A stretch of DNA of 64,000 bases from Amoebophrya sp. A120 (GCA_905178155.1 CAJINV010000009.1:372001-436000); one strand, 5' to 3'. Positions 8,616 through 61,929 are shown, counted from the stretch's first letter. The notes: generated by a model from the letters alone, not told the origin. A program made the numbers and translations.

Positions 8616-9341
8616 AGGCGAGGAGCCATGAATTTTTCAACAACCGTTGGCATTGAATGTCGAACGAAGGGAACGACAAAGACAACCGCATGCAAAGAAC
8701 AGCAGATGAAATGAGGAACGAGAACGCGTTTCGTTCGCGAGGAAACATCCTTGAATATGATCCCAGTTGCTTGCAATCACAAAGAACTCGCAATCAAACT
8801 GATGGAATAGCATGCCAAGGAACAAGAATTGGACTTAGAATTAGGGTATCTGGAGGACGACGTGCTGTCATGCGCCTGCTTCTGTGCGATGCTTCCGCTT
8901 TGATTCTGATGATGATGAAAGTCTCTAAACTAAAACTCTTTTCGCATTGGTACATTGTTTCTTTTGTGCCACGAATTGGTTTGTGATTTTGCTACTACAG
9001 CCAGATCTTTTTTTCTTGATCCGAAAGACAGGAATAAGACGTAAAGTGTCTGAGAGCATGCATGAGCATCCTGACCCTGAAAAAAGATAAACGAAGTTTA
9101 GCACGATGTGTCTTTGACTTTACTTTGATTTTTTTCCCCCAACCTCATTCTCGCAAGTTCTCTTTTTGCTTCTCTCGTGCCTACTTCGACGCTCCATGCA
9201 GGAGTCTGCTCATTGTCTCAAGAACAGCACTAAGGTGAAAGCAAAATTCAAGGCAGTGTCCCTCGTCGAAATATTTTTTCGTTTTAGCATTTGATTCTAG
9301 TATCTGTATTTGTTCTTGCGGTTTCAGTATTTCAGCCCACG

Positions 9342-12146
9342 ATGTTAAAACGAAGCAGCGACGCGACGAAGCTACGCGGTTTTTCCAGCAGCCTTGTGAG
9401 CATTTTTGCAGCTGCTTCCATCGCCACTTTTGCCGCGTCCCCGACTAGTGCATCTTTTCTAGCTGTGCACCCTCGCGCCGACGACGTTGACGACTGTCTC
9501 GGCAAACGAACAGACCCAACTGCAACAGGTTCACCGCCGGCCTGCGGTACGCAGACCGCGGCTTCCCCGCGGTTGATTGTCCGCTCTCTCTCCTCGGAAA
9601 TCCTGCTGGACCTTTCTCCATCCGAATGGCGGTCTTTGTCTGTTGCGGCTCTGGCACAGACGCTTCTGTGCGCAGAGGAACGAAGGTCCTCTCAAGGCAG
9701 AAGCAGTACCGGCTCAGCACTTCTTGCTGACGCACTTCCACGACGCTCTTTGAGGAAGGACGAGACTCCGTCATGGGTGCGGGAACGAGTGCGATTTTTG
9801 CCGGGGGACAACCTGGTTCGGGGACCGGCGTTGCCTGATCGTGACACCCGGCTGCTGCCTAGTTTGCTGGTTTTGGCGCGACAAGCCAACGACTTCTCAG
9901 ACGCTTTGAAAGCGCCTCAAAGCGACTTTGTCAGCCTGACCGCTGTCAGACAGCCGCTCCGACTGGTCGATATGATGGAAAATTTGCGGCACGGAAACCC
10001 AAACCGGCCGCGTGAGCATGGATCGGTCGCAATGGGGGAGGATGCGACCTCGAGGCCGCCTAGACCACAATCAACGATGCACTCTGTTATACCGAATGAA
10101 CGGGACGTCGACGACTTGCGATCTTTTCTCGATTCAATCGCCACCAAGTATGAAGAGGGCACCGAAACTCTTGCCGCCGAAGGAGTCACGCGTGGGATGA
10201 TTGACCTGTCTCGCGAATTGGTGATGGAATCACCCTTTGTTGTAGCGCTCTCAGCCTGGCTGGATACTTTGGTGTGGCAAATCCAGCATGTGGTTGAGGC
10301 AGAAGTTGTAGCTGAAGTAGCAGGCCGGGCGGAACGCGGTGTTGATCAGGTAGACTCAGAAACCAAAAAGCAGAGAAACCGACATGCACGAAAGGCTCTT
10401 GAGGAGCAATTTAAGCGGGACCTGAATGACGTCATCTCTACGTCGCCGGCACACGACGACCAGGCTGCAGCGACTGGTTACGGAATCCTACAAGGTTATC
10501 GTGCGCGGACATCAGACAGTGCTCTTCGCAGACTCAGGGAATGGGCCCTCTGCGAAGATAGCTCTTTGGCTCTCCAAGAGCAGGATTGGTTTTTCGAAAT
10601 TCTCGCTTCGCAGCTGATTGGCAAACTCAAACAGAAGATCCGGCGCGTCGCCGCAGCACGACGACAAATGCTCAATGGCAATGGGAGTATCGCTAGTGTC
10701 CGTGGTGTTTTTGCATCGCAGTTGGTCAAGTTAGTTCCAAGAGTGAAAGTGGCTGTTGTGGCGGACAACCGGCGATGGCTTTACGATCTCCCACCCGAGG
10801 AGTTTTCTGATTTGTCACCGTCAATGGAGCTGGCCATCACGTTCAGTGCGGTAGAGCTTGACTCTTCTGGAATTAGTGGAAGTTCTGTTGGTGGAGCTCA
10901 GCTGCTGCAGCAACATGAAGAGCGACGTGGCGCTGACAGACCACACACAGCAGGCCGGTTCTTGTTTACAACACGCACGCGTTCTGCTGAGGAGCAAGAG
11001 CAAGACCGCCTAGAGCACAGAATGGTAGGCAATCAAGGACGTCATGCGGAAGAGGAGCAAGATGACATCAACATCTTGTATGGACGGCAGGGAAATTATG
11101 CAGGATCCCTGGTACTGCAGTTTGGCCTCATGTTCGAGGCTCCCCTGCCCCCGACAAACCAGCGTGTCGATCAGTCATCTGGTAAGGGGGATGCTCAACA
11201 CAAGCAGCTGCCAGGACGACGCGCCGCAAGCGGCCCGGCACCGCACCGGCAACAACCAAAAGATCATCGCGAACAAAGCAGATCTTGCGCTTCTGTCTCC
11301 GACCAAAAAGAGGAAGCTGCGTGGTGTGAAGCAGAAGCGCCTACTTCGTCCAGTCGCTTTGATCTGGCTTTGACCAAAATGAGCATAAATCTCCCGGACA
11401 TGTCGCCGAAGAAAGTTATGGCGAAGCTTCGCAGACTGGGCGATGCCTCTGCGACGACAGGGAGCCGGGGCGAAGACTTCAGGTCCGAGCATCGTCTTGC
11501 ACAAAGAATCCAGAGCTCCCTTCAAACCGCGGGGCAGTGCTGTTTTTACTCTGCCTCTACTGCGCCGGGCACCACGAGCCTCTCTTCACGTTCCAACAGC
11601 TCCAGCTCTGCGTCGGCGTCACCTGCGCTAGGAACAGCCGACGCACGGCTGCAGGGCGATGTGCAAGAAGACGAACCTGGTGCAGTGCCACGGCCTAAGC
11701 TCGTCCAGCTCCCGTCCACCAGGGAACAAGACGAAGTTGCTGCGTTTGAAAAGGCGAACCTCCCGCGGCTTTTCGAGCACCACTCCGGGTACCTGGTGCG
11801 GGCGCCAGCGGCCAGATACATCTTGGCTGATGGAGCTACCATCGTTGACGAAGCTACCGGGCGGGTACGCGGGACGATGACAGAGGACGACCCCTTGGGA
11901 GATGAAAGTGAGTCCTCCGACGAGGCGGACACCGATACTGAGCGGATGAGGACCAGAAGTGGTCAAGATCCTCACATCGAAGTAGGTGCTGAGGACCGCG
12001 TCGACGGGGATTTGGACCAGGGAAGGAACATGGCAGAGCCGTTGCATCGTGCAGAAGAGAGACGGGTGTGGGTGAAGGAAGCAGAAAGTTGGGGGGCCAG
12101 TTGGATCTTAGAGGTTCCGGCGCGGGGACATCGATTTCCGATTTAG
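9342..12146 (+). CDS. Hypothetical protein, possibly secreted
   Basis: Uninterrupted ~935-codon ORF with a hydrophobic N-terminal segment (SLVSIFAAASIATFAAS). No family recognised. Confidence 0.65.
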   Translation: MLKRSSDATKLRGFSSSLVSIFAAASIATFAASPTSASFLAVHPRADDVDDCLGKRTDPTATGSPPACGTQTAASPRLIVRSLSSEILLDLSPSEWRSLSVAALAQTLLCAEERRSSQGRSSTGSALLADALPRRSLRKDETPSWVRERVRFLPGDNLVRGPALPDRDTRLLPSLLVLARQANDFSDALKAPQSDFVSLTAVRQPLRLVDMMENLRHGNPNRPREHGSVAMGEDATSRPPRPQSTMHSVIPNERDVDDLRSFLDSIATKYEEGTETLAAEGVTRGMIDLSRELVMESPFVVALSAWLDTLVWQIQHVVEAEVVAEVAGRAERGVDQVDSETKKQRNRHARKALEEQFKRDLNDVISTSPAHDDQAAATGYGILQGYRARTSDSALRRLREWALCEDSSLALQEQDWFFEILASQLIGKLKQKIRRVAAARRQMLNGNGSIASVRGVFASQLVKLVPRVKVAVVADNRRWLYDLPPEEFSDLSPSMELAITFSAVELDSSGISGSSVGGAQLLQQHEERRGADRPHTAGRFLFTTRTRSAEEQEQDRLEHRMVGNQGRHAEEEQDDINILYGRQGNYAGSLVLQFGLMFEAPLPPTNQRVDQSSGKGDAQHKQLPGRRAASGPAPHRQQPKDHREQSRSCASVSDQKEEAAWCEAEAPTSSSRFDLALTKMSINLPDMSPKKVMAKLRRLGDASATTGSRGEDFRSEHRLAQRIQSSLQTAGQCCFYSASTAPGTTSLSSRSNSSSSASASPALGTADARLQGDVQEDEPGAVPRPKLVQLPSTREQDEVAAFEKANLPRLFEHHSGYLVRAPAARYILADGATIVDEATGRVRGTMTEDDPLGDESESSDEADTDTERMRTRSGQDPHIEVGAEDRVDGDLDQGRNMAEPLHRAEERRVWVKEAESWGASWILEVPARGHRFPI

Positions 12147-12811
12147 TAAATACGTTGACATCGATATATTCGATAAAAAACGCATATTCCCGCACTAAGT
12201 AATGTGAGCCGAAGTGATAAGAAAGCAAAAGCATCAATACTTAACATGATCCATGTATCTACAATAGTTCATCTTGCGTTGTCTCCCTGCGACAGGTCCG
12301 CCTACGCGAAGATCACAAGTCCCTCGAGTCACACGTTGCAGAACATGGTTGAAGCGGCGGTCGTCCCGTTTGACGTTTATGTAGATGATCATGATCCCCC
12401 CTACTAGTCCTAAATGCTCCTACCTCAACGGTTTCAAGTGACAAATTGGCAAGGGAATGCAATAGAGATCCTCAAGAAAATGCTGGAGGAGCGGCCTCGC
12501 TTTCCTTTGGATCGGGCGCGGGCCTAAATGAATCATGTGAGGCGGAAATAAAAAATTGTAACTGTAAGCGAAGATGTAGATGGTGACCATATTGCCTTGA
12601 TATTCACATGTTGGAAACAGGACAACGAGCGACAATTACTAGGAGTGATGATGTAGAGGAGGTGAGATGTGTTTTCCTGTTAGAGTTTTGTCAACATTAC
12701 TTTTTTGCGAATTCTATGACATGTTGATCGCCCCGGCCCCTCGGCCCCACTAAGAGAAGCGTGCCAACCGGCGGCAACTACGGGAGGTCTTTCGACGTCA
12801 ACGCTGCCGCC

Positions 12812-15800
12812 ATGAGCGCGTCTGCGATGACTGGGACGGGTTCCTATTCAGCGGCGGACCAGAAGGCGCGCGACATTTTGCGGAAGCACCACGAGGCGCA
12901 ATCATCGGCTTCTTCCTCCGGCAGGAAAATTGATCCGAGTGACGTTCTACAGACACTGCAGCTGCTCCCTTTCCCCCGCAACACGGAGCGGGTGTCCGTG
13001 CGGCCCGAAGGCAAGGACTTCGTCCTCTCCATCAATGTGGGACTGACTACGCTTCGGGGCAAGTTCCCAGTGTTGTCGCAAACGGCGCGGAAGTGTCCGC
13101 ACGTCGCGCAGCTGCTCGCAGAGTTCTGTCCCAGCGCTCCGTTTGGCAGATGCATAGCGGATGATGCTGGTTGTATTCTACCTGACGAGTCAACACCCAC
13201 AGATGCGGTCGCGGTGGGCCATGATGCCACGCCTGCTGCAGCGGAAGATGCTGGGCGGGACACCAAAAATCGGTTCACTTTCACATCCATCACCGTGAAC
13301 AAGAACTACGCCGCAAACGCGCACCGGGACGCCAACCACTACCGGGGAAACGCACGCATCATCGCGGTAGGCGATTTTACCGGAGGTGAGCTCTTCGTCA
13401 CGGATTTCGACAAACGAATCGACATTCGCAATGCCTGGCATGACTTTGACGCGCGCGAGTTGCACGGGACGTTTCCCTTTGATGGGGAAAGGTTCTCCGT
13501 GGTGTACTTCGTTCACACTGCCTCTGTGCCAAAGTTGCTGGGGCAACATCTTCCCTTCAAAGCAGGAGGTATCAGACTGGAGCCTGCGGGTGAAAACGAG
13601 GCGTACGATCGGGAGCTAGAGTCACTGAAGAAGCATTTCGTTGAGGAGTTGCATATGCCGTGGCCAGATTTTCAAACCGATTTTCCGCCAAGTAACTCAT
13701 TGCAGGCAAGTATTGCGGCCTTCGGAGATCGAGGCGTGCCAAGCACGACCAAAGTGGCAAGTGGGCATAGGACAACGATTTTTGACGTTCCAAGCTCCGC
13801 TTGTGCTAGGTCGCAACGTGGGCGGCCCATCGCAGCCATCATTCTGACGAAAAATCAGGCTCCTGGTGCTGCACAATATGCCCCACTTGTGCCGCTCGCC
13901 TGTCAAGCCCTTGGGGCAGTTTTCAAAGTGAAGTGCCGCGAGAGCAATGCGTGGAGCCGCTTGGGGACAAAAACAGGAAGACATCCGGTGCCTGTGGTAT
14001 TTCTCGATCAGCAAAGCATGGTTTCGTTTGCCAAAAGGATGGAGCTATCGTGCGAGGTGTGGGAAGAGATAGAAATAGATGCTGATCTCGAAAGAAAAAG
14101 CGAACGTGCTGCCGCGGCACTTTCGGAAGCGCAGAAAGAAGGAGACGAAATCAGGGGTGATCAGAGGACCACGGGAAAAGAACGGCACCGAACGCTAGCC
14201 CGCGGGCTCGTTTGCATATCTGACGACTCGGACTGTTATGGTCACAGCTTGTCGAAGAAGCAGAGAACCGCGGATCTGCCACCACTCGTTCGGCACAGGT
14301 TTGGAATCGACTTGGAAAAATCTGCTACCGACTTGTCGCCGAGCTTGCACCGAAAGTTGAAAAAAGAAAGCTCCAGGACGATTTCATCTTGCACCCCCTC
14401 GACCACAGATGACGACGAGACGAGCGAGACCAACACCAAACCGGAGCTCGGCGGTCGCGGAAGGGCTGAATTTGCCGCACATGAGCCGACCTCAGAAATA
14501 GAAGAAGAAGATTGCAAGCCGAATCGAGTAAGGCCGCCTGCGCTTGCCCCACAGCTCGGTGTTTGGTTTCCCTTCTCAGGAACACCTCGCGCTCCCCTGG
14601 AGCGTCGTGTTTCCTCTACGCAAGCGTCAAACCTCCCCCACGAATCGTGTTGGCAGCTTTTGCAACTCGTGGAGCCCCCGTGCTTTTCGTCGAGGGAAAG
14701 CAACCGGAGTCTTGCAGATCGCGCACTTATGAGTAGATCCTGTTCCACACCAGCGCGGCGAGGCTCGACTCGTCGCGCCCCACTGCCGGAACCACTGGCA
14801 CGCCTCATGCTGAACGCAGCCAAGGTGTTGCCCACAAGCATGGTTTTGGATCCTTGCGCAGGCGAGGGCACTATTGGGCGACTGGTTGCCGGCGGTTGTC
14901 TTGGGAATTGCTTCTCCGCGGATGTTGTCTCAGACGGGGCAAAATATGCATCTTCGGCTTCATCATCTGCGGTACTAGCGGAAGAAACCCGCGGTCCTTG
15001 CGAATTTGTGACCGCCAACCTGTTCGCCGCGCCGTTCCGACTTGTCGGCCAGTACGACGCTGTAGTCTGTGACCCGCCGTTCGGACGCCGAGAACCCGTG
15101 GTAACTCTCGCACATGGAGGGGCTTCCGCTGCCGGCACAAACCCCAATCCTTCGCCCGCGGTTCTTGGCATCTATGATAATGCCTTTCTGCCGGAGCTTT
15201 TTCGACTCTCCGCACGTGCGCTGAAGCTTCGAGGCAGATTGGTTTTTCTCTATCCGCATTACCCGAAAAGTGAGGAGAAGGACAAGGACGAGACATCCCG
15301 AGGAACTAGCTGGACACCCGAAGACATGCTCGCTTTGGGCAACGCAGCCATAAAAGAAGACAAACATCAGAGCGCCGGCGTCGAAGATCCTCGAACAGAG
15401 GACAGCGCTAACTGCAGATGGCACCTGGTCGGCACCGCCGAGCAGGAGTGGGCGAAAAGCTCGGGGCACGTCATGGTGCGAAGACTGGTAGTGCTGGAAA
15501 AGCAACTCGAGAAGCGAGACGAGCGCAGCCGGCGCACAAAGGCGACGAACAGAATTGTTGAGCGTTCTGATGAACCGTGCGCTGCCACACCGGCCTCCGA
15601 GTCTTCGTGGTCCCAGCGGCTGCTGCACGACATAGCAGCACCCCACTCTGAAGTTGACAGCAACCCAGCTGCATCGTTTCTTCTTGACGCAGCGACGGAG
15701 CGCCGCATCCGCCTGGCCGTCGAGGATCAATTGCAAAAGCAAGAGGCGCGCGGGCCGCGGAAGGTGTTTCAGGGTTTGAAGGTCACGCCCGAGCCCCAGC

Positions 15801-17044
15801 CCCGCGTCAGCATTCCCGACTTTCTGCGGGAGGAGCGAACGCTGTGCCTCAAGGAGAAAACGGTGGAAACGATCGCACAGGTGTTGCTTCGCGAGGTACA
15901 GGACGTAGTTCTGGGGCCTGTTGCTGCTGCCGCCTACCGTGTCGCAAAACCCGATACCAGCATCGAAGCCGGTTTTCGTGATGTGTTTTTCCCGCGCGCT
16001 GCTGGCCGAGGGACGGCACGACCCTCAGCTCCGAATTGGGACCACCTGAAGCCGGGCCGCATTCAAAGTTTGATTCGTCGATGTCCGGAGTTCTGTGCAC
16101 GCTATAAGGCACTTATCGCCGAGGAGGTCGGGCCAAAGCTGTTGCAGGACGCTTTGGGGAAAAACCCGCATTTGGGAGATCTTCGCGGGGAAAACGAAAC
16201 GCAGAAGCTGGTGCTGCTGTACCAGTTTCCGCCTACCCTGCGCGTGAAGCAGGCCCTCCCCGCAAGCCTTTCCTCAAGCTCGGAGGCAGCAGGCGCTGCT
16301 AGTGCTACTGCGACGGCTGAGAAAAACCAGCAGGGGAACACCGTAACGACCGATGGTGGAAACGCAGTTGCCGGCACGGCCCTCCAAACCCAAACGCCTT
16401 GCTCCATTGCTCAAGTTCACGCGGACGACATATACGGGCATCAACCGGGAGAAATCAACTTCTGGGTACCGCTGGTGCCAATTGGTCATGTGTTACAACA
16501 AGAGCCGGAGGAGAATAATGTCATGACCTCTCAACCACAACCAATCGCGGATGAGGACACTGCAAGTTGTGCCAGCAGTTCAGCTAATGTGGGAGGACCC
16601 CGCCCCGCAACAGAGCCTGTTCTGATGAACACGCTGTGGTCCGAAAGCGTTCCGAACAAGGCGGACTGGCACCCGTTCGCACCGCTGCGAGTGGGCGAGT
16701 ACAAGCGATTTTGGGGCAGCAAGGTCCGCCACTTTGCCTGTACGAGCACCGCAGTAACGGTGGCAGCTGCTACTGTGTCAGGTTTCACCAGCACTGGAGA
16801 AGCAACGGGATCCAGTGGAACAACCGCCAAAGTGGCTACATGTGCGGAAGAAAACGAGATAAAAACCCGGGTGAGTCTCGATTTCCGCTTGTGTCTACAA
16901 GAGCAATTCGACGAAGAGTGGGAGCTCCCCGGAGTCGTCTACAGCCATGAAAGAAGAGAGATGGAATTCGAATTTCACGCCGGTAGGGCGACTGCTGTTC
17001 TTCGTGATACTGAGACAACTCCTGTGCTCCCAGACAGCACATAG
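12812..17044 (+). CDS. Multidomain protein: 2OG-Fe(II) oxygenase (TET/JBP-like) + Trm11/UPF0020-like SAM amino-methyltransferase + second 2OG-Fe(II) oxygenase (StrG/PhyH-like)
   Basis: Domain 1: FTSITVNKNY..HRD (13322)..GDFTGGEL..H (13463)..GERFSVVYF. Domain 2: PLPEPLARLMLNAA..VLDPCAGEGTI (14846)..YDAVVCDPPFGRRE (15071)..GRLVFLYP. Domain 3: YQFPPTLRV..HADDIYGHQPGEINFWVPL (16418)..NTLWSES..VRH (16730)..TRVSLDFR (16868). All lie in one ORF. Confidence 0.8.
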   Translation: MSASAMTGTGSYSAADQKARDILRKHHEAQSSASSSGRKIDPSDVLQTLQLLPFPRNTERVSVRPEGKDFVLSINVGLTTLRGKFPVLSQTARKCPHVAQLLAEFCPSAPFGRCIADDAGCILPDESTPTDAVAVGHDATPAAAEDAGRDTKNRFTFTSITVNKNYAANAHRDANHYRGNARIIAVGDFTGGELFVTDFDKRIDIRNAWHDFDARELHGTFPFDGERFSVVYFVHTASVPKLLGQHLPFKAGGIRLEPAGENEAYDRELESLKKHFVEELHMPWPDFQTDFPPSNSLQASIAAFGDRGVPSTTKVASGHRTTIFDVPSSACARSQRGRPIAAIILTKNQAPGAAQYAPLVPLACQALGAVFKVKCRESNAWSRLGTKTGRHPVPVVFLDQQSMVSFAKRMELSCEVWEEIEIDADLERKSERAAAALSEAQKEGDEIRGDQRTTGKERHRTLARGLVCISDDSDCYGHSLSKKQRTADLPPLVRHRFGIDLEKSATDLSPSLHRKLKKESSRTISSCTPSTTDDDETSETNTKPELGGRGRAEFAAHEPTSEIEEEDCKPNRVRPPALAPQLGVWFPFSGTPRAPLERRVSSTQASNLPHESCWQLLQLVEPPCFSSRESNRSLADRALMSRSCSTPARRGSTRRAPLPEPLARLMLNAAKVLPTSMVLDPCAGEGTIGRLVAGGCLGNCFSADVVSDGAKYASSASSSAVLAEETRGPCEFVTANLFAAPFRLVGQYDAVVCDPPFGRREPVVTLAHGGASAAGTNPNPSPAVLGIYDNAFLPELFRLSARALKLRGRLVFLYPHYPKSEEKDKDETSRGTSWTPEDMLALGNAAIKEDKHQSAGVEDPRTEDSANCRWHLVGTAEQEWAKSSGHVMVRRLVVLEKQLEKRDERSRRTKATNRIVERSDEPCAATPASESSWSQRLLHDIAAPHSEVDSNPAASFLLDAATERRIRLAVEDQLQKQEARGPRKVFQGLKVTPEPQPRVSIPDFLREERTLCLKEKTVETIAQVLLREVQDVVLGPVAAAAYRVAKPDTSIEAGFRDVFFPRAAGRGTARPSAPNWDHLKPGRIQSLIRRCPEFCARYKALIAEEVGPKLLQDALGKNPHLGDLRGENETQKLVLLYQFPPTLRVKQALPASLSSSSEAAGAASATATAEKNQQGNTVTTDGGNAVAGTALQTQTPCSIAQVHADDIYGHQPGEINFWVPLVPIGHVLQQEPEENNVMTSQPQPIADEDTASCASSSANVGGPRPATEPVLMNTLWSESVPNKADWHPFAPLRVGEYKRFWGSKVRHFACTSTAVTVAAATVSGFTSTGEATGSSGTTAKVATCAEENEIKTRVSLDFRLCLQEQFDEEWELPGVVYSHERREMEFEFHAGRATAVLRDTETTPVLPDST

Positions 17045-17588
17045 GAAAAAAAAAAAGATGCGAACATCTACATTTTCTCAACAGCGACGCAAATACACAA
17101 AGGACAAAGTAAGGAGAAGATGTAGTGCAAAGTAGCGCCTTGATTTGAATTTGTTCGTGAACAAAGTGAACCTTATAACGTTTGTTGAGTTCTTTCGCTC
17201 CACATCGGTCAGGAAAAGGCGCCGGCGCACTTCGTTTTTGTGGTCTATTCCTATTCGTCTAGGTGTACCTACCGACATCGTGATCGTGGCTTGGGACCCT
17301 TTCGTTGTCGCAAACTAATTCATTGGTCTCAGCATTTTCGTATTCGTTGCGGTGAATCGCATTCGAAATGATAGTCTGTCAATCGTCCTCACTCTCGACG
17401 CTCGTGTAAGTAGTCTAAACAGGAATCGGAAATGTTTTTTTTTAGAATGAAAATGCAATGTGAATGTCGACTTGGTCCTCCAACAGATGTACTAGCTAGC
17501 ACTACGGTCTGGGGCAACCATGCCTATTGAAAGTAGTCACTAGAACAATCGCTATCTGCTGTACTAAGAGACGTGTGTTATCAACAAC

Positions 17589-18788
17589 ATGAGGTCTATT
17601 TTGGCAGGCTTCCTAGCCAGTGCGACTGCTGTTTCCACAACGGTCTCCAGCGCGAAGGGGGTTAACAGCGAGAATTCACACAGTATCACGGGGACAGCCG
17701 ATGCCGGGGTTGTTTCTGCTGACGAATCGTCGCAAGCGTCAACCGCCGCTGAAGGGGAGAGCAGGTATAGTAGGCTCTAGCAGCCGCTCCCGCTTGCTGC
17801 AACTTTCGATGATTTCCGTTTTAGCCAAAAAGATAGCTATCAAGAGGCGAATACGATTGCTCTCACGCAAGTTGTCATCAGTTCAAGCCCTCGAAATAAA
17901 GCACGATATTAAATGAGCAGGACTACATGCAAATTCTACATCAGCTTTCTTCACCGTGTCCTGTCGGAGTGGGTCCCGCCGTGGGTCTCCAATCCCAACG
18001 TTCCAAACCCGAGCCAATTGAAGCGCAGCAAAGCTCAGCAGCTGCAGCTCACGATGCTCAAAGTGGATTCCGATTCCCCGGATTCGCAGCACCCCGGGTC
18101 ACCTGTCTCGGGTGTCCCTCCGATGCCCGATGCGAACGCGCTCCCGTACGACCACGTTGACGTCCTGCAGCAAACAGGGCAGCAGCACCGGGATAATGCC
18201 GAGCAGGGGAATAAAGTGGACCTGCCGCAAATTTCACTTTCGGCTTCCTCGCCCACGTCGTCGGGCACGTCCCCTCAGATGTTGCCCACGACTGTGAACG
18301 TGACGCTCGACTACCTCCGCGAACAGTACGAAATCGAAGCGGAGAGTCGTTTGCACGGGGTCAAGCACAACTTCGAAGTGCCGTTACTTGCCTCGGACGA
18401 CGACGTGCGGAGCGCGGCCGTTGCCACCGAGGCCGGGGCCGGGTTGTTGGCGGCCACGAAATCTGCCAGTGACGACAATTTCTCGAACACCTACAACCTG
18501 TTGGACTACGACAAAGTGCTGGCCTTCCTCTCCCTGAAGTCGTTCGAAGACTTCGCGGCGCTGTTCTTCTACCTCGCCGCCGCTTTCACCCTGTACTACT
18601 GGTGCTGGTACCGCGGAAAATCCGCAGGAACCGGCTCCGGAGCTGCGACGGTGATGGGGGGCATGATGAGCACAAACAAGAAGCAACTGCAGATGACGAA
18701 CCGCAAGCTGTTCCGGGGGGAGCCGGAAGATCTTGACTCGGTGAAAATCAAGAAGTACGCAAACGACGACTTCGACGACGATTTGTAA
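17589..18788 (+). CDS. Hypothetical single-pass membrane protein, 2 exons: 17589-17764, 17921-18788
   Basis: N-terminal signal-like peptide. An in-frame GT-AG intron at 17765-17920 (156 nt) is flanked by the direct repeat GAGCAGG. C-terminal TM segment FAALFFYLAAAFTLYYWCWY. Confidence 0.72.
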
Positions 18789-19561
18789 ATGTGGTGAAGT
18801 TCTTGTTTGATTTTCCCGCAGTAGGGACGGAGCGCGATGAGAGACGGGTCGTGCGCGTGCCGGCAGCGCTTTCTGAAGTGAGTTGAAGACTCGTTTTTCT
18901 TACCATGCGATAAAGGTATGTAAACAGACAGTAGCACGCAGAGTGAGAGTCAGAGTCAGAGTATTGAAGAAGCCAAAGCACCTGTAGTTTCATTTTCATC
19001 TAGAATTGTTCCTACCACTTAGCTTTATTTTCATTTTGGAGAATTTTTTGTACAATAAAAACACTTGTTGCTACTTTGCAATTGCATCTCTTCTTGTCAT
19101 CTCTCAACGTCTTTAAGAATGTATTTTTGCTTTCTCGGATTGGTGATGTTAGAGTTAGTCTAAATTGTTTTTGTCAATGTACAATTTGTTTGCGGCACCT
19201 TTGCCTAACGTTCGACGTCAAAATAAAAGGTAGTCGTTGTCGTAGCACAGCCCAGCGCTCAGTAGTGGCAGCTACTTATCGACGTTTTCTCGATTCCACG
19301 ACTACAGACGCAAAAGGGCTTTGTGTTTTGCTTCGTTCCGGTGTTTTTTTCTTGTGTGTTGGCTACAGTGTCAAATAAGACCACTGCATGGCCACACAAC
19401 TGCGTCAGATTATTTCACTTTCTTCGTGCTTATGACGTCAGTTTTCAATCTTTTCCTGTGCACTTCCTTGCCGTGCACAACCTCTGGTAGTTTTGCTGTG
19501 ATGAAGTTTTCTCGTCGCATATTTTCGGACTTATTATATTACAACCCAGATAGAAAAGTCG

Positions 19562-21904
19562 ATGAATCTTGTAAACCGGAGGACTTGCATCGGTCGCCGA
19601 GGATTTTTGCAGCGCTCGTTCAGACGTTTTGCGGCAGCCGCTGGGCTACTTCTTACAATCGCTGCCTGTCTTCATCAACCCGTCGACGCTCACACCAGTG
19701 CGCGCGTTTCTGCTCGTGGGCCGGCGCTTGATGCGGATCGGGTGGGATTTTTTGGCGCGGAGTACCACAGGTGGACTGTGACGGACGTCGAGTTTGCGTT
19801 TCACAAGACGGACTTTGGACAAGTCTTCTACAAGTTTCAGCATTTCACGCCGCCACAGCACGAACATGGTGGAACTACAGGGACGGAAAACGCTACTGCT
19901 TCGAAAAGAACACCCCCACGCTACGTGTTTTTCTTTTTCCACGGGACGCCGCGCAGCAGCGATGAGTTTACAGAACTGATCAAGGAGCTGACGACCACGT
20001 GGCGGAGCACCAAGCTGTTGAAGAATGAGCCCTGGAGTTGGATTTCCATGGACCTGCTCGGGCAGGGCCGAAGCGAAGACTTCCGGTCGGATAGGTACAA
20101 AAACTCGATTCTGTCCAGGAAAAAAGAATATGTGGGCGTGGAAGAGTACGGAAGAATTGCGCGGGAGATTCTGAGCACCGTGTTCGACAAGATGACTGCG
20201 GCTGAAGGAGACGAAGACATGAGCACGACAACAGCGGCGAAGCCGGGAGGTTACAACGTGGCGGATGAATTCGACCCCGTGAGACTTCTTGCGGGGCTCG
20301 ACGCTTTCGCGGGCACCAGTACACGTGCCACTTGGAGCTCCTCGTCTCGAAACCACGGGTTCACCTTTTCACCACCAGATACAGGGACCAGGGAATACAA
20401 CTACACAAAAAGCGCTGGTGGAAGCGTGAAATGTGACCTGCAGTCGGAAGATGAGCCCGAAGTTCTCGACTGTAAAGATGGTTTTACATCAACATCAGCG
20501 TCCGACGCTGGTCATCCACCGTCACGGCGACGCGGTGATACTATTCGGCAACACGAGCTCCGGGTAATTCCCGTCGGGAGTTTGGCTGGGTGCGCCATCG
20601 CGATCTCGTTTGCGTACGAGCTTCTGATCCACGCCCCGAAAGGTAGCGCGGAATGCGCAGGTAGGTCTAGTACTACTCGAGGACCGACGGCGCAATTGAT
20701 GTCTTCGTTGCTGTATTTGGGTCCGTCGTCGACCACGTCCGCGGCGCGTCCGAGGTATGACCACGGGGCTGCTTCGTCGGCGTCTTCGACCTGCTCACCA
20801 AGTGCGTCTTCGAGTAGGAGTTGCGCTACAGCGAGTACGCCTAGAGCCAGAGGAGAAGCGACGTTCTCTGAGATGAATTCTCAGCCATCTGTATGCCTGT
20901 TCACAACGATTCTTCACGCGCCCATTTATCACATGACGGAGAGCTTGCGGGCCCAAGTTTTGGATTACGCCCAGTCCGTGAGACACTGGGAGCCCGGCAG
21001 AGACGGGTCGCATCTGCTGCACTTCTGGGAAAACCCGAGCTTCCTGCCGAGTTCGTTCTTAGCTGGTGTTGATGAAAAAGGCGACTTCTCTAGAGGCAGT
21101 AGGCTTCGGACGACCAGCATCGGAACTCCAGGACGTGGACCTGCTGCAGCTAAGAGTGACGATGCTGGCGGTAGGACGGGAACTTCTGCTGGTACCTCCG
21201 GTCACGTTGATGCGGCCGATAACTCGGACGTCAATCTCCTTCACCGCGTCGTCGTAGACATGCTGCGTTCCGGCAAAACACAATGGCAAGCGATCCTGGC
21301 GTTTCTCGAGTATCAGCGAGACCCTCTAGGATTTGCGTATCAACTTACCGCGATCGCGAAGCTGGGGCAGGCTGACCCCAATGTGCTGCTTTTGTTCGGC
21401 GAAGACATGTTTCGCCTGCCGCCGAGACTTTTGCCAAAAGCACCTCCGACTCTTACCGATACAGAAGGGTCAGGTCTTCGCGATGAACGGCACAAGCACA
21501 GCGGCGTGGTCGTTCCATCGAGAGCGGAAACCTATTGGACAGAGAAATTTCTCTTGCGGGAGTCGACACTGTTTTTGCTTTGCAGTGTGTTGAAGGTACC
21601 GGGTACATCCTTGCCTCCGCTCGACAGCGAGCTACTACAAACAGCAGGAGATATTGGCCTAACAGCAGGACGAGAGACATTAGCATCCCAGAAGAGCAGC
21701 CTCAATGCCCACGATTTTCCGCAAGTGCATCGAACGCAGCAATCAAATGTGGCGAGTAGGGTTTTGAACGTGATCGGCAACGCCGGGGAGGCCCTTCTCT
21801 CTGAAGAGCCTCTGCGGGTTGCTCTGGCTATGCTTGGCCACGTAGAAAACCGATTGGAGAGGCTGGAACGTGGAAAGTCGCCCATCGTCGGTCGAATGTT
21901 TTGA
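19562..21904 (+). CDS. Alpha/beta-hydrolase-fold protein with many insertions and atypical catalytic motifs
   Basis: VFFFFHGTPRSS, ISMDLLGQGRS, elbow-like PVGSLAGCAIA, VLLLFGED and C-terminal VIGNAGEALLSEEP. Confidence 0.72.
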   Translation: MNLVNRRTCIGRRGFLQRSFRRFAAAAGLLLTIAACLHQPVDAHTSARVSARGPALDADRVGFFGAEYHRWTVTDVEFAFHKTDFGQVFYKFQHFTPPQHEHGGTTGTENATASKRTPPRYVFFFFHGTPRSSDEFTELIKELTTTWRSTKLLKNEPWSWISMDLLGQGRSEDFRSDRYKNSILSRKKEYVGVEEYGRIAREILSTVFDKMTAAEGDEDMSTTTAAKPGGYNVADEFDPVRLLAGLDAFAGTSTRATWSSSSRNHGFTFSPPDTGTREYNYTKSAGGSVKCDLQSEDEPEVLDCKDGFTSTSASDAGHPPSRRRGDTIRQHELRVIPVGSLAGCAIAISFAYELLIHAPKGSAECAGRSSTTRGPTAQLMSSLLYLGPSSTTSAARPRYDHGAASSASSTCSPSASSSRSCATASTPRARGEATFSEMNSQPSVCLFTTILHAPIYHMTESLRAQVLDYAQSVRHWEPGRDGSHLLHFWENPSFLPSSFLAGVDEKGDFSRGSRLRTTSIGTPGRGPAAAKSDDAGGRTGTSAGTSGHVDAADNSDVNLLHRVVVDMLRSGKTQWQAILAFLEYQRDPLGFAYQLTAIAKLGQADPNVLLLFGEDMFRLPPRLLPKAPPTLTDTEGSGLRDERHKHSGVVVPSRAETYWTEKFLLRESTLFLLCSVLKVPGTSLPPLDSELLQTAGDIGLTAGRETLASQKSSLNAHDFPQVHRTQQSNVASRVLNVIGNAGEALLSEEPLRVALAMLGHVENRLERLERGKSPIVGRMF

Positions 21905-22613
21905 AAGACGAACTGAACTCGAGCTGTTTCATGTTTTTTGATTGAATTTGGTTTTGATTTTTAGTTTTACGGCCGTGTTTCGGACAAAAGTTTTTGCCAT
22001 TTTAAGTTTTCGATTCCTGTTTGAAAAATGCCTTCCATGTATATCATCCCCAAGCAGGTCAATTCTGAGAATAAAGTTCAACAGTCTCTCTCTCTTCTTC
22101 GATGGTGACACAGAGCTGATGAATGGTCTATGTTTGCATCAGCACAGAACCAGAATGTTAAAAGACGAAATCGTTCATCTTGGAGCGCGACGCTTAGGCT
22201 ACAAGAACGAACTGGTGCTGCAGCGCCGGCACAGTCCGTCCGCGCGAAAGGACCGCGACCTGCTCACTGTCATCTTTTTTCTCTCGCTTGAATTCAACTA
22301 TACAAAAAATCATGACGATCTTCCGTGTGAGCTCCTCTGCCTCCTCTTTGTTTTGCTTTTGAAACGCCGGCAGACGCTTTTTCCTTGCCGTTTGTCTCGT
22401 TTGGATCCGCAACCGCAAGATCAGTGGCTTTCATCTACTGATCATTAATTAATATGTTCGTCCTCGACTGACTCTGGTCTGATTCTAATTTGTTGTGCGA
22501 ATGTCGAGCACAACAGTGAATCTACATAATGTAGAACAAACAAAGTTCAAAAAGATAAAGAACGCTGCCCAACTCATTTTTGCTGAAGAACAAAGTACAT
22601 AAACAAGAAGATA

Positions 22614-51676: not shown

Positions 51677-52320
51677 TTTTCCCCTCTGCTCCTGCACGGG
51701 TCATGCAGACGAAAATGAACTTACGAGAGCTTTGTTTTAGTTTACCTTTTCTTTCAAATGAACTTACCGACGAACGAACTTTTATTTTGTTGCCGGGCAC
51801 AATAAATGCCGAATTTGAATGAAAGCCGTCTAGTCGATACAATGATCACCCTTCCAAACAAATAAAGAACTCACCGAAACGATTTGGACTCCTGTTACTT
51901 TGACACGAGAACATGAACAACGAACTCTTCTTTTCGCTTTCGATTTTGGTTTCGCTTGTCTAAAGATTGCCAGTTCCTTCGGGTGTGCGGTGGTATTGAT
52001 GCCGCAGCGTTTGCCGATACACCCTTTCAAACGGACATCGGTCTTGTTTTCCGACCATGTACCTACAGCCATTGTGTTCGTGTGAGTATGAAGAACCGTT
52101 TACGTTTTTCATCCCAGTAACAGATGGAAGGTGAAGCGATTTCTGTGGAGAGAGGAGGTGTGTGCCAAATGGCTACTTGCTTCATCTATCTGGAGCGACA
52201 TGTGTTTTGCCGATTCAAGGCAACGTCTTGGCTGCGTCATTTTTCACCTGTTTTTCCTCTTTGAGTGCTGTCTTGCTTTTGGAGCAGACTGGTTTTAAAA
52301 AATCAAGCCTACTGAAAAAA

Positions 52321-53907
52321 ATGCCCGCCTCCGCGTCGCAGCGAAGCAAGCGGAAGGGGAATCAAAAATGCAAGACAGACGACGTTGCGGCTCCAATCGA
52401 GCAACGAGAGAACGCAGCGACCCCGCCCACCGCACGTACGTCTACAGCTCCCGATTTCGAGGGCACCGACCTGCTAGCAAACCAGATTTACGCCAAGTTG
52501 CTGAATACGCTCCGTCTGAAATACGAGAGAATCGTCGCGAAGCCGGAGTGGTGGTGGATTCAAGACGAATGTCTGGCGCTGGTGGCGAAGCAATTGAAGA
52601 AGAACGACTACGCCTTTATCGACGGTTTTCTGCCCGCGAACACCGCGCTCCGGCTCCGAACAGAGGTGCAGAAGTGCGACGCCGACGGGAGGCTGAACCC
52701 CGCTGGCGTGGTGAATGGAAAAACAGAAACCGCGTACATCGAGCAGAGCACCCGAGGCGACCGTGTCGGCTGGTTCAATACGAACAACGCAGAGTCGTGG
52801 GAACTGAAGGGCGGCGCGGCGGAGGGCATCGACGACGCAAACAAGTGCAGCAGTGACAACTCGGGCTGGAGATACGGCCCGATGCTGGATGACACGGGCA
52901 TGAAGGTTTCCACTCTGGTGAACGAGCTGAAAGTGTACTTCCCCCCGAAGGAAGACCTGGACCGGATCAACTCCCGTTCGCACCACATGGTGGCCTGCTA
53001 CCCGGGCGGAAATGCGCGGTACACGAAGCACTACGACAACGACGGAAAGCATCCGCAGCTCTCGAAGCGCGTGCTAACGTGTCTGGTGTACTTGAACCCG
53101 GAAATGGAAATCGACGGCGGAAGTCTGTGCGTGTACAAGGCGGATGACTCCGATTGCCTGCGCTCCGCGGTCGCGCCGAAGCTGGGTCGGTTACTGCTGT
53201 TCTTCAGTGACAAGCGCGTGCCGCACGAGGTACGCCCGAGTAAAACGATGCGTTACAGCGTCACCACGTGGTTCCTGGACAGCAACGGAAGGGGTGCGGG
53301 GAGTGAGGCGGATGCGAGCTACCCAGCATCGACGACTGCTGTTGCAGAGGTTGGACAAGACGAAGCGACAAAGTCATCGTCGGGCACCAGTACGAAAACG
53401 CCTGTGTCTGAAACTGAATGTGAGCAACAGGACCAAGCGCCCGTCGACGATAAAGAAAAGGACAAACTACAGACGACGTCACAAATCAAAGATGATGCCT
53501 CCGACAACACGCTCCTGAGCGAACTTCACAGAGACAATGGCAACGGGAAAGGGGTAGACATAGAAAAGCAAAGAGAGGATATCAGTACAGCAAAGACCAA
53601 CGGGAGTATGAGTAAGTCACTGTCTCGTATTGAAAGTGAAACTGACACGAGCTCGGCACTGCGTAGCAGAGCACAGTTCCAGATTAGCTGGAAGGATCGA
53701 ACCACGTTGGAGATTTTTGTCGATGGGGACAATGTCGAATGTCCGGAGTTGGAGTTTAATGGCAAGGAAATCCGGATTCTGAACAGTGATGGCGGCGTCG
53801 CGGCACAGGTTGTGGTGGAGTACAGAACGAGTAGCTACTCGTGCAAGTGGAGCTCGAAGAAGAGAAGACTGCAGGTTCTCTTTGTGGCGGAGGAACCATC
53901 AGGATAA
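52321..53907 (+). CDS. EGLN/PHD-like prolyl 4-hydroxylase (2OG-Fe(II) dioxygenase) with small C-terminal beta domain (CS/PIH1-like)
   Basis: YAFIDGFL, TRGDRVGW, MVACYPGGNARYTKHYDN (HxD at 53029), RVLTCLVYLN, GRLLLFFSDKRVPHEVRP and RYSVTTWF. The C-terminus ends KWSSKKRRLQVLF. Confidence 0.87.
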   Translation: MPASASQRSKRKGNQKCKTDDVAAPIEQRENAATPPTARTSTAPDFEGTDLLANQIYAKLLNTLRLKYERIVAKPEWWWIQDECLALVAKQLKKNDYAFIDGFLPANTALRLRTEVQKCDADGRLNPAGVVNGKTETAYIEQSTRGDRVGWFNTNNAESWELKGGAAEGIDDANKCSSDNSGWRYGPMLDDTGMKVSTLVNELKVYFPPKEDLDRINSRSHHMVACYPGGNARYTKHYDNDGKHPQLSKRVLTCLVYLNPEMEIDGGSLCVYKADDSDCLRSAVAPKLGRLLLFFSDKRVPHEVRPSKTMRYSVTTWFLDSNGRGAGSEADASYPASTTAVAEVGQDEATKSSSGTSTKTPVSETECEQQDQAPVDDKEKDKLQTTSQIKDDASDNTLLSELHRDNGNGKGVDIEKQREDISTAKTNGSMSKSLSRIESETDTSSALRSRAQFQISWKDRTTLEIFVDGDNVECPELEFNGKEIRILNSDGGVAAQVVVEYRTSSYSCKWSSKKRRLQVLFVAEEPSG

Positions 53908-57200: not shown

Positions 57201-60200
57201 GATAGAGTTCGGCTGCACACCTCCGCGTGACAACAACCTGTCCCGCTCGGCCCAGCGCGTCACCCCGTTCTCTTCGCCAACGAGAAAAACTGTTTTTCCT
57301 GAAATAAAGACAACTGAAATAAATCCAACACGTTCAACGTCAAGCAACGGCGACGCAGTCCTGATCGACTTGCTCGACCCTGGCTACATCTTCGAGGAAG
57401 AAAAAACAGGAAAAGAGGCAGGAATCTCTTCTGGGCGACGAGAGGATCTCGTACATCCAACAGAAGCAACGATAAGCACGTGTCGTAACGTACTTTCAAG
57501 CGCGATCACACCACCAGCCGAAAAAATGGCAGCACACACGGAAGCTCGCTTGCAAGATGACATCAATGCGCTCTTTGGGGAAATGCCAACGCAGCAGAGC
57601 AAGGCCAGCACAATGGTGCAGCACACTAGAAAAACGACAAACACGACCGCGCCCACGGCACGAGATGGGCTAGGAACAGCAGCAACCACAACAGCCAGAA
57701 GGAACAAAAAGAAGAGGGCTGACATGTGCAGTGACAGCTCTGGGTATTACGACTCCGAGAGCAGCTGTTCCGACTCCGACAGCCAGACTAGTAATTCCTC
57801 GGATGTCCTTGTTGACAGCACTACTGAGGAACGAGTGTACTGGTCTCCCTCGCCCAATAAACGCGCAAACGGACGACCAGCGGAAGAAAAGGCGGCGGCG
57901 AATCATAGCAAAGGTCAAAACTGCGGCGATTTTTGTGCAGGGTTTTCGGCTCCTTCGCATTCGACGGCGCAGCATCAGCCAGATATGGCTACGGGCTCTT
58001 CTTCTATGTGTAAAGAGTCGCGACGTGGTGAAGAAGAAACGCGGAGAGAGAATCCATTTCCGAAGTTGCTTGACTTACTCGAGCGCCAGACGGCAGGAAG
58101 TTCGCTCCACCCCCGGAAGCTCGAGCTGATGCGAGCAGCGATTCCGGAGGATTTGTTTGACAAGTTCCTGTCTTCGATGCAAACCGCGGAGCGCGAACTG
58201 CTTGAAGGTCTCTCAACAGAGTTCGACAGGCGACAAGGACGGGCTTCCTCTGTACAAACGGAAGTGCAGCTGGTAAAGAAAAAGAAGTTTTATTCGCCAC
58301 TGCCAGATGGGACAATGAAACCGTGGCAGCGCTGGGAAGCCGACGACAGGTGCAAATATTATGTATGATGTGCCACGTGCTTTTCCTGTTAATTTCAGCC
58401 TGAAATAAAGTCAGCTACTCATCTGGTACTTATACATGGCTGTCCTTGCTTCATTTACTTACTCGTCCCCCGTCCGAAAAATGAACGCAATAATCAGGGC
58501 CCCACTCGTCGAAGATTTTCCCGAGCCTATGCGCGACGTCGTGAAAAGGGCGTACAGCGAGGGCGTTTTTTTCGTCCGGTGGACGGGCAAGGTCGAGCAC
58601 TACGGGAAGCAAAACAAGAAGGAGTGGCCACTGTACGAGGTCGACAAGGACAATCGCACGGGGTGCATTGTGTTGCCCCAACCGAAGCACGTGACCGCGT
58701 CGCAGAACGAGATGGCAGCCTGCGGCACAGTTTTGGAATACCTGCCCATCGAGTCGAAACCCGTGCAGAAGGAGTTCTACTGTTTTTTGTGCCGAAAGTA
58801 CGCCGGCTTTGACGCCCCGAACGGCGACGAGCTGAAGGAGCACCTAAATTCCAAACTGCACGAGAAGAAGATGTCGCACGTCGCCACCGACCCAGCCTAC
58901 AAGAGCCATCACTACAAGCACGTTTTCGACTACGGTGACAGCCTGATGTTCGAAAAGAGGAGCACTGGAGATCCGGGCAGCGACGTCGCGACGTCGGTAG
59001 CAGAGGTCTTAGAACTCTGTGTGGAGGCTCCCGCTCCTTCTCCCAGCTCGCCCGCCACGCCAGTCGATACGCCAAGGAACACACACAATCGGACGGAAAG
59101 AGGTGATTCCGCCGCTGGGAAGAAAGTGGCGCCGTTGCCGCATTTTTTTACCGTTACCAGTGAAGCACAAGGCTCGGCTTCCTCCGACTCGGAGACGGAG
59201 GAAGACGCTGCGGGGCGGAATACTAGACACGAAGCGAAGCAGTGGAATCGCAATATTCACAGCAGCGAAGAGCGCTGCAAATATTCCAAAAGGTAGTTGT
59301 AGTTCTAGTTGCAGTGCATTTCCTCCCTTGATTGCGTGCATAAAAAGTGTCTTCGTGATCTCCTCTCATCTTCACTCTTTTTCGCAAAATTTACATTTCG
59401 ATATAAACAAGAATTTTTGCAACGCCAGGTCTACTTCGAATGCTGGTGCGGGGGAGAGTTGCAGTGGCGCAAAAGCAAGCGCGATTTCGACCACAACGAC
59501 CCAAAACCTTGTGGAGAACGAATCGGCTCCAGAAATAAGACACGCGGAGATCATGCAAGCCGAAATGGCTAAGTACGGCGTCACGGCGGAAGAATGTCGA
59601 CAACAGGGCCACATCCAGTGGGCTGAGAAGCAGATGCGAAAGCACGGCAAAACACCGGAGGAGATAGGCAGAATCTGCGAAGCCATTGGCGAAGAAGAAT
59701 GCTGCCGAAGATGGACGGGAATAGGCTTGCGATATTTTGCCTTCCATTTCGAGCGGGAGAGACGAGAAACAGAAGAACGAGCAAAGCGTTTGGAAGAAGA
59801 ACGGGCAAGAGAACTGGAAACGCGACGCATTGATGATGCGGCCGCGCAAGAGGACAGCAACTCGGGGCAACACAAAGAAGTTAAGAAAATGACTCGGAAA
59901 GATATTCTGTTTGCGCGCGCCACTTACCTCCAGCGGAAGTTATTCGACATGAGGACAGGCATGCCAAAGGTGCACGATAAAGTTGTGAAGTATTTGGTTG
60001 GCTGTTTACGAGCAATATCAATATGAACATCAACATCCTTGTTACCCCTACTGAGTCACTTATTGATTAGAAACTTAGGTTTCTCCATCTCCCAATAAAA
60101 TCGAACTATATTATAACACTACGACGCTTTATTTCTCGAAATATTACCCAGGTGCCGATCCCCGAGGGCAATCAGCCACCAACGCCGCAGGCGATCGTCG

Positions 60201-60394
60201 CTTGTTTACTTGCCCCGAGCGACAGTGACTCCGAGTCTTCCCAGGATTATGCGCCACCTGAACGCGAGCAGAGTCGCACTGTTCACGCATTTCTAAAATC
60301 CAAGGGCGATCCTGCGCGTTTCTTGGACAAGTACGTCGAGCGGGTTTTACGGGACAGAGAAAGTAGGGAGGAACAGTTCTTAAAGGGTGCTTAG
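54290..60394 (+). CDS. Large Ser-rich hypothetical protein with a U1/matrin-type C2H2 zinc finger; proposed 5 exons: 54290-56079, 56316-58349, 58498-59292, 59429-59969, 60152-60394
   Basis: Four phase-compatible GT-AG introns (56080-56315, 58350-58497, 59293-59428, 59970-60151) join five ORFs into 5403 nt (1800 aa). Zinc finger FYCFLCRK..LKEHLNSKLH. The first junction is the least certain. Confidence 0.55.
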
Positions 60395-60785
60395 GAACTG
60401 GAACAAAGATACTTTTTTCGTTTGTATCAAAAACAACGAAACTGCGAGTTGGAGTTTTGCCTGGAAGAAGAGCAAGACTATCATACTGGTATTTGATTAC
60501 ATATTCGGGATTTTGATTTAGGCATGAACATGCAAACAGAAACACCATCGCTGTTTATTGAATAAACGATCATGTCGATGTAGATTTCTTTGCATTGAAA
60601 CGCAAAGAGAAAGAGCAGCAGCTCCAAAAGAAAAAATTGTAATCTGGTAACCAAATGCGTGCGCGCGCGCGCGCAGAGCGCGCGCCGGCCCACGAAGCCG
60701 GCGCGCGCGCTCTGCGCGCTTGCGATATTGCTTAGCAAACGCAGCGCGAAGGCAGTTGCCGTTACCATATAGGGCAACCGCCGGG

Positions 60786-61733: not shown

Positions 61734-61825
61734 GCAGAAATTCGGCATCTTCCCCGGGTCTGAAATGGCCGATTTTGGTGGCCCAGCAGGGTTCGCGGGT
61801 TTGCGGTTTTCCACATACCTTCCTG

Positions 61826-61929
61826 GCCAGGTGGCCAGTTTGTCATGCAGGGTGCTAGAAAGGATGCCCCGCTGCGAGCCAGGTGGCCAGTTTGTCACGC
61901 AGGGGGCTACAAAGGATGTCCCGCTGCGA
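61826..61929. repeat. 52-bp tandem repeat, 2 copies, inside the TIR element
   Basis: GCCAGGTGGCCAGTTTGTCAYGCAGGGKGCTASAAAGGATGYCCCGCTGCGA starts at 61826 and 61878. Confidence 0.9.

Follow-up and report, generated by a model that had tools for sequence, protein, structure and literature searches.

A 64,000-nucleotide stretch of the Amoebophrya sp. A120 assembly (GCA_905178155.1 CAJINV010000009.1:372001-436000; below, ‘the window’, with positions counted from its first letter) contains, at 12812–17044 on the + strand, a gene that joins three intact catalytic domains within a single intronless open reading frame (ORF) of 1410 amino acids (aa): by our assignment a TET/JBP-like 2-oxoglutarate (2OG)/Fe(II) oxygenase, a methyltransferase of the UPF0020 class and a StrG-like 2OG-Fe(II) oxygenase, hereafter domains 1, 2 and 3. 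The single frame, the three domain families and the presence of their catalytic residues are plain from the data; the order of the domains is apparently unique, each part belonging to a known class. As to function, we lean towards the view that the three domains act as independent enzymes on different substrates, following a lineage-specific gene fusion. A first-pass annotation had described one uninterrupted ORF with two sets of HxD...H...R residues flanking LDPCAGEG and DPPF motifs, all of which we find in place, in an architecture that was unfamiliar to it and that we have found in no other protein searched; its proposal that the protein might methylate and then oxidise one and the same base fares less well, as discussed below.

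The frame opens at an ATG in a GCCGCC-ATG context (12812; an in-frame GTG at 12761 provides an alternative start) and translates without a stop to 17044. The two linkers that separate the domains match no family and are coding-like: linker 1 (13532–14731, + strand; aa 241–640), which has two basic clusters at aa 482 and aa 514, contains no in-frame stop in its 400 codons, whereas every one of the five remaining frames has 7–12 (P ~6e-9 given the stop frequency of intergenic sequence), and linker 2 (15527–15796, + strand; aa 906–995) is stop-free over 90 codons, which is weaker when taken alone (P ~0.014). Codon usage in all five segments of the ORF, linkers included, scores best in the ORF’s own frame.

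Sequence runs agree with this picture. One DNA-type run, X1, covers 8700–22500 in a single contig with 0 differences (and is possibly the source of the window itself), while four runs from two samples of one study are RNA-like, a status that we guess, none of the runs being on record as RNA. Three raw-read RNA runs bearing the same species label gave 0 reads and carry no weight here. Within the four RNA-like runs, single contigs bridge the junction of domain 1 with linker 1 (X4, 13370–13987), that of linker 1 with the methyltransferase (X3, 13909–14806) and the stretch that runs from the methyltransferase across domain 3 as far as the stop (X5, 14939–17056). As to whether transcripts split the ORF, a point raised by the first-pass annotation, the RNA-like contigs that tile the ORF contain no splice joint within it and both junctions are bridged, but no single contig among these pieces spans the whole. 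Where the listed pieces overlap least, they share 11 bases (14927–14937, within the methyltransferase domain), and all four RNA-like runs have a break near 14760–14940. X3 and X4 extend over some intergenic DNA as well; both nevertheless contain real mRNA, since each carries a spliced GT..AG joint in the downstream gene that is missing from X1. X3, X4 and X6 each include one contig with a loose end (255 letters or more) ahead of 14127 and past 19940; short resembling stretches in other transcripts are the probable source.

Domain 1 (12929–13531, + strand; aa ~40–240), which is interrupted by one insertion of ~40 aa, carries its catalytic residues at H171 (13322), D173 (13328), H218 (13463) and R227 (13490). 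Its relatives comprise five proteins and 53 metagenome loci, the loci having been picked by a pattern around the catalytic Arg; in alignment A3 the iron triad and the 2OG-contacting Arg are invariant in 34/34 rows, the Arg region having itself formed part of the search pattern. Pfam Tet_JBP (PF12851) matches domain 1 at E 1.4e-5 (24.8 bits, under the cut-off of 34.9), and all four PDB matches of the 34-row profile at E<=10 are TET enzymes (NgTet1 or CcTet), each weak (E 0.46–0.6). A single-sequence fold of aa 1–913 was unusable (pLDDT, the predicted local distance difference test, 33), so that the calls for domains 1 and 2 rest on sequence. Context adds to the family call: the sole annotated phage match, HTVC112P gp18 (33% over 77 aa, E 1e-3), lies behind a ParB-like gene, an order described for ParB-dependent T-dioxygenases (PMC13229309), and in locus L029 TAGT lies directly upstream of a relative. 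Six pattern matches in viral contigs yielded no confirmed domain 1, and the TAGT-linked relative matched none of the annotated phages. We place domain 1 in a predicted protist/viral subfamily of TET/JBP-like enzymes, the likeness to TET/JBP being what the first pass had supposed. The gp18 protein (L055:3416-4324, Pelagibacter phage), which sits between the ParB-like gene and an FkbM methyltransferase, is annotated as DnaJ/SNF2-like yet shows the TET/JBP-type HxD...H...R pattern, and is likely a misnamed T-dioxygenase.

Characterised TET/JBP enzymes modify 5-methylpyrimidines (PMC4738411), and of these the dinoflagellate thymidine hydroxylases CryTJ1 and AmpTJ1 share with domain 1 the PF12851 family and the motifs HxD and H...R, CryTJ1 having the same HRD and making 5-hydroxymethyluracil (5hmU) in DNA (PMC11572971). 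Several relatives of domain 1 likewise have HRD and, at 490–570 aa, come near to CryTJ1’s 59.5 kDa; the likeness is one of motifs rather than of sequence alignment and, unlike the query, neither enzyme is described with a methyltransferase fusion in the parts of that paper drawn on here (PMC11572971). The phage 5-methylpyrimidine dioxygenases (ParB-dependent, TAGT-linked; PMC13229309) show the same ParB/TAGT adjacency as relatives of domain 1, but are stand-alone, and in our tree a very long branch separates gp18 from domain 1.

In a tree of 35 rows (the query, the five proteins, 28 of the 53 loci once 25 near-copies or fragments had been left out, and gp18), the relatives fused to a pseudouridine-synthase (Pus)-like domain form a 13-row clade with support of 100/100; the query falls outside it, lacks its HxDxG signature and has no supported sister. 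Among 29 relatives scanned from the 53 loci, seven (L023, L034, L037, L043, L044, L049 and L051, within this well-supported clade) give a weak match to a tRNA-pseudouridine-synthase (TruA-like) domain, often behind a C2H2 finger, with one of the seven over the cut-off; the fusion of this domain to the TET-like oxygenase is conserved among them. One relative each of the 29 carries a C5 cytosine methylase (L021:70-1422) or an ATP-dependent DNA ligase (L003:2-2851) in one chain with the TET-like domain, or a PBZ finger; UPF0020 is found in 0/29 of them and in 0/5 of the proteins. Algal fusions of a pseudouridine-synthase-like and a TET-like domain share the oxygenase subfamily of domain 1 and an RNA-modifying partner with the query, differing in clade, in the signature after HxD and in the partner itself. 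The 2009 survey of Iyer et al. is said to cover such algal RNA-modification oxygenases.

At one of its base-reading positions domain 1 departs from its relatives. NgTet1 and TET2 read N4 of 5-methylcytosine (5mC) at the position of NgTet1 Asp234 (PMC11040006); here the query has His rather than Asn/Asp, with an Asn one residue earlier, as against Asn at this position after HxD in 20/20 rows that are neither Pus-fused nor phage. H235 stands at the position of NgTet1 His297, where His occurs in 2/34 readable rows. With His at the base-reading position instead of Asn, the pocket of domain 1 may differ from those of its relatives; on these residues and an unsupported place in the tree, the substrate may be T or 5mC, and in DNA or in RNA.

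Domain 2 (14732–15526, + strand; aa ~641–905) is a predicted class I S-adenosylmethionine (SAM)-dependent methyltransferase of the UPF0020 class (Trm11/Trm14/THUMPD2-3/RlmL), with motif I (LDPCAGEG) at 14846, an acidic residue after strand 2 (FSAD) at 14912 and DPPF at 15071. Pfam UPF0020 scores 35.9 bits, over its cut-off of 22.3; among Atlas look-alikes (score 0.95), 9 of the 10 listed clusters are UPF0020, including THUMP-domain and THUMPD2 clusters; and HHalign to an archaeal TIGR01177-like profile, built from 69 full-length proteins among 120 loci that a motif search had fetched, gives a probability of 97.7% (E 1.8e-12, aa 655–819), all of which upholds the first-pass view that Trm11/UPF0020 is the closest family. 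TIGR01177, which we take to be the archaeal Trm11 family, is the best match of 10/10 archaeal reference proteins tested, every one of them under its cut-off (244–285 bits); against it the query scores 20.8 bits, far under the cut-off of 316.55. The DPPF of domain 2 fits the (D/N/S)PP(F/Y/W/H) definition, and its aspartate would correspond, mapped by motif and not by alignment, to D291 of yeast Trm11, loss of which abolishes activity (PMC5389515).

The catalytic domains of Trm11, Trm14/TrmN and THUMPD2/THUMPD3 align with domain 2 over a span that starts at the helix preceding motif I and ends with strand 5, and DPPx is retained; these enzymes also possess ferredoxin-like and THUMP domains, neither of which was detected in the query. 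This apparent absence matters because THUMP binds the CCA end of tRNA and fixes the methylated position (PMC9957541, PMC5389515), enzymes of this type making N2-methylguanine (m2G) in tRNA (PMC9957541). Linker 1 matches nothing in Pfam at E<=10, hence no THUMP or ferredoxin-like domain, and archaeal N-terminal profiles run on stretches of aa 240–660 gave nothing above 0.6 bits in nine tests, the best being equalled by 7/300 shuffles; these profiles being archaeal and Pfam ones, a eukaryotic THUMP broken by insertions could escape them. A search of 7996 candidates under 775 aa that share words with the methyltransferase yielded no homologue at E<=1e-3, a pattern search gave 120 matches with 0 confirmed, and further searches returned only one plasmid match at E 0.2 and TrmN at E 0.3; there is also a weak PrmC match (E 9e-4). 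We assign domain 2, at the level of class and not as Trm11 proper, as the putative catalytic half of a Trm11/Trm14/THUMPD-class guanine-N2 methyltransferase.

Domain 3 (15797–16996, + strand; aa ~996–1395) carries three low-complexity insertions and has H1203 at 16418, D1205 at 16424, H1307 at 16730 and R1353 at 16868, plus S1355, this H-D-H-R-S set being conserved in 78–83 of the 85 rows of its alignment. An AlphaFold2 model built from these 85 sequences (pLDDT 74.8) predicts a PhyH-class double-stranded beta-helix with HxD...H and RxS: PtlH is the best structural match (Z 14.1, root-mean-square deviation 3.6, 203 aligned), followed by phytanoyl-CoA hydroxylase (Z 12.7), ThoJ and EctD, with FTO in 48th place (Z 9.0) and TET enzymes absent from the best 50 rows. 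Pfam finds no family in domain 3 at E<=10, and so no PhyH (PF05721), which gives weak sub-cut-off matches in 3/60 relatives; TIGR04324 (carbohydrate-cluster oxygenase) matches weakly (E 0.03). The family profile A1 matches both of the StrG-annotated plasmid proteins tested (E 7e-41 and 2e-31), the name StrG being the annotation of those proteins; the link runs through this profile, as domain 3 alone matches them weakly (E 0.015 and 0.35), and the papers searched held nothing on the reaction of StrG. Domain 3 thus resembles StrG-annotated/PtlH/PhyH-fold oxygenases in fold, family profile and H-D-H-R-S, as the first-pass annotation had it, and differs from them in its long insertions and its position behind an RNA-methyltransferase domain. 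That annotation had also held that matches to non-nucleic-acid enzymes would tell against a base-modifying protein: for domain 3 such matches are what we find (PtlH, phytanoyl-CoA hydroxylase), whereas domains 1 and 2 are of nucleic-acid types.

The family of domain 3 is mostly stand-alone, 124 of 149 listed relatives (besides the query, and out of 260 at E<=0.001) having 400 aa or fewer. A second Pfam domain over cut-off occurs in 12 of 60 relatives scanned (the top hits and most of the long ones), the partners being diverse and unrelated to one another: a TylF-type methyltransferase, esterases, an aminotransferase, Rieske, LRR, a second oxygenase, and PCMT with the tRNA-modification domain DTW. 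DTW is present in two of the 60; P0116 and P0120 (1223 and 1330 aa) are four-part fusions of PCMT, methyltransferase, DTW and StrG-like oxygenase. Of 97 viral motif matches 95 were confirmed, in 34 clusters, 29 of them with a same-strand neighbour within 400 bases; 52 neighbours were scanned, of which 28 received a Pfam label and 24 none. Glycosyltransferase or sugar-nucleotide enzymes make up 20 of the 28 labelled neighbours, in 17 of the 29 loci, a share that has no background rate for comparison. The only nucleotide links among the viral neighbours are a tRNA synthetase, an HNH nuclease and a ThyX-like gene, which one viral StrG-like gene abuts and directly follows in a DNA-metabolism module (L001:2670-4360). 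Neither domain 3 nor its viral relative matched any of the annotated phages. In two proteobacterial plasmids (L273:3293-6429 and L274:3690-6636) the StrG-annotated oxygenase lies directly behind a TP_methylase-type gene of 740–800 aa, pairs which to our mind recall borosin peptide methyltransferase clusters. A logic of ‘methyltransferase next to StrG’ shared with the query was considered and rejected, since these bacterial neighbours are of the TP_methylase type and show no relation to domain 2.

Members of both oxygenase families are readily fused to other partners; the combination seen here recurs in nothing that we searched. The two oxygenase profiles meet in one chain in 0/154 other proteins (149 relatives of domain 3 and five of domain 1) and in one reading frame in none of loci L001–L055, and the Trm11-like profile is matched only by P0001 and its window frame. 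A full-length search among 7989 candidates of 775–2468 aa returned the query alone, the whole protein had 0 matches to PDB sequences, and nothing in a viral structure library matched under E 0.001. Tandem duplication of one oxygenase was rejected as an origin, the profiles of domains 1 and 3 aligning at only 1.9% probability. The literature searched, a scope outside which most subscription journals fall, does not describe the architecture; the surveys of Iyer et al. from 2009 and 2013 are said to be the likeliest places for such fusions.

How might such a protein work? Under the reading that we favour, that of independent enzymes, domain 1 would be an Fe(II)/2OG-dependent hydroxylase that acts on a pyrimidine’s 5-methyl group within a nucleic-acid strand, DNA being the likelier kind (T would become 5hmU, or 5mC would become 5-hydroxymethylcytosine (5hmC), as in dinoflagellate and phage TET/JBP enzymes); domain 2 would move a methyl from SAM onto guanine N2 of a structured RNA (tRNA or small nuclear RNA), for which, no THUMP having been detected, its RNA-binding module would have to be either very divergent or supplied separately; and domain 3 would hydroxylate a sugar, peptide or small molecule instead of a base, its substrate probably being of a non-nucleic-acid kind. 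The fusion itself would probably have arisen by the joining of neighbouring co-oriented genes. We rank independent action first because none of the proteins searched other than the query has two of the three domains, because the substrate classes of the three families differ, and because oxidation of an N-methyl group would remove it. Several observations weigh on the other side. Two of the three domains are nucleic-acid-modifying types, favouring a functional pairing; the TruA-like fusions in the domain 1 subfamily (7/29, weak, one over cut-off) and the DTW fusions in that of domain 3 (2/60) lie in the same direction; and ‘DNA rather than RNA’ is a lean only for domain 1, its place in the tree being unsupported. 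For domain 3, phage glycosyltransferases can act on DNA, the share of glycan-related neighbours stands without a rate for random viral genes, and one viral gene lies directly behind a ThyX-like gene. A singleton, moreover, cannot show whether the fusion is selected.

The strongest competitor, which we hold to be possible if unlikely, has domains 1 and 2 modifying separate positions of one RNA, domain 2 making m2G and domain 1 oxidising 5-methylcytosine or 5-methyluracil (m5C/m5U), with domain 3 a passenger or a modifier of a base-attached sugar. It draws on the parallel with the algal pseudouridine-synthase/TET fusions, on the TruA-like and DTW partners just mentioned and on the shift of at least one TET/JBP clade to RNA, as reviewed in PMC4738411; set against these are the position of domain 1 outside the Pus-fused clade and its want of the HxDxG signature, the lack of UPF0020 in the 29 and five relatives scanned, and a THUMP domain that our profiles did not detect. 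Sequential action on one base, in which domain 2 methylates and domain 1 and/or 3 then oxidises to give a new hypermodified base, is what the first-pass annotation had envisaged, and we consider it very improbable. The chain has three active sites that all look intact, the unusual His may signal a different pocket, and CcTet, a TET, accepts N6-methyladenine (6mA), an N-methylated purine (PMC11040006); but the expected targets (guanine N2 of RNA, the pyrimidine 5-methyl, and for domain 3 a family context of sugars and peptides) do not converge on one base, and no relative keeps any pair of the three domains. Chemistry is a further obstacle. Oxidation of an exocyclic N-methyl group gives a hemiaminal that loses formaldehyde, so the second step would undo the first.

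Could the methyltransferase instead be decaying or repurposed (e.g. towards a protein or small-molecule amine), devoid of an RNA-binding module and leaving only the oxygenases to matter? The failure of Pfam and archaeal Trm11-like profiles to find a THUMP or ferredoxin-like domain, the empty homologue search and the weak PrmC match would all suit such a history, to which we attach little credence: the domain retains motif I, its acidic SAM-binding position and DPPF, the last including the counterpart by motif of an aspartate needed for Trm11 activity (PMC5389515), and an insertion-broken eukaryotic THUMP might have been missed. We find least credible of all the notion that the continuous frame is expressed as two or three products (through internal starts, trans-splicing or readthrough-like overlap), with no triple-domain protein made. 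The missing full-length contig and the shared break near 14760–14940 could be read in this way, as could the intergenic coverage of X3 and X4, whose RNA status is a guess from two samples of one study; that break, however, falls within the methyltransferase domain, both junctions are bridged by single contigs, X3 and X4 hold real mRNA, and the linkers have coding-type codon usage. A more speculative scheme, on which we would place little weight, is that the TET-like domain replaced THUMP as the targeting module: a 5-methylpyrimidine would be hydroxylated and a nearby guanine methylated at N2 on the same strand, possibly DNA, the StrG-like domain then tailoring a sugar later attached to the hydroxymethyl base. 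To our knowledge, enzymatic m2G in DNA has no precedent. Were this scheme true, it would amount to a hypermodification pathway in the manner of phages, condensed into a single eukaryotic protein.

Turning to the surroundings of the gene, all 15 stop-to-stop frames of at least 500 codons in the window lie on the + strand, its genes being long, mostly intron-free and insertion-rich; unidirectional gene arrays have been described for dinoflagellates (PMC11572971) and co-oriented gene blocks analysed in Amoebophrya (PMC7789003). A neighbouring gene encodes an AMPK-like kinase which, like the intron in the next gene, marks the host as a eukaryote but narrows its lineage no further. The next gene (17589–18788, + strand) is spliced, a 180-base GT..AG intron between ~17761 and 17942 being skipped in X3 and X4; because of this intron, it probably starts at an ATG near 17589, with a signal-peptide-like N-terminus, and not at the ORF start at 17913. 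At 52162–53907 (+ strand) lies another 2OG-Fe(II) oxygenase (2OG-FeII_Oxy_3, E 8e-19), of a family other than those of domains 1 and 3. In the interval 60001–62000 the GC content drops to 27%, from ~53% elsewhere; both strands carry long open frames there, and no large tandem array is present. Two short DNA motifs, an intron-element end and the dinoflagellate spliced-leader end, occur at chance level and so say nothing about lineage.

For the biology of this organism, the gene supplies a candidate TET/JBP-like enzyme of a protist whose genes lie in co-oriented arrays. Were the host an early-branching dinoflagellate, as its gene layout may suggest, domain 1 would be a direct candidate for the enzyme that makes 5hmU or 5hmC in it; PMC11572971 names as open questions how the TET/JBP proteins of dinoflagellates divide their work and a 5mC-specific hydroxylase. 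The gene also presents a catalytic domain of the Trm11 class to which no recognisable THUMP domain is joined, and offers a handle on a large, unstudied family of StrG-like oxygenases. Coupling of the domains is unlikely; if they did prove to be coupled, they would constitute a new single-chain base-modification system.

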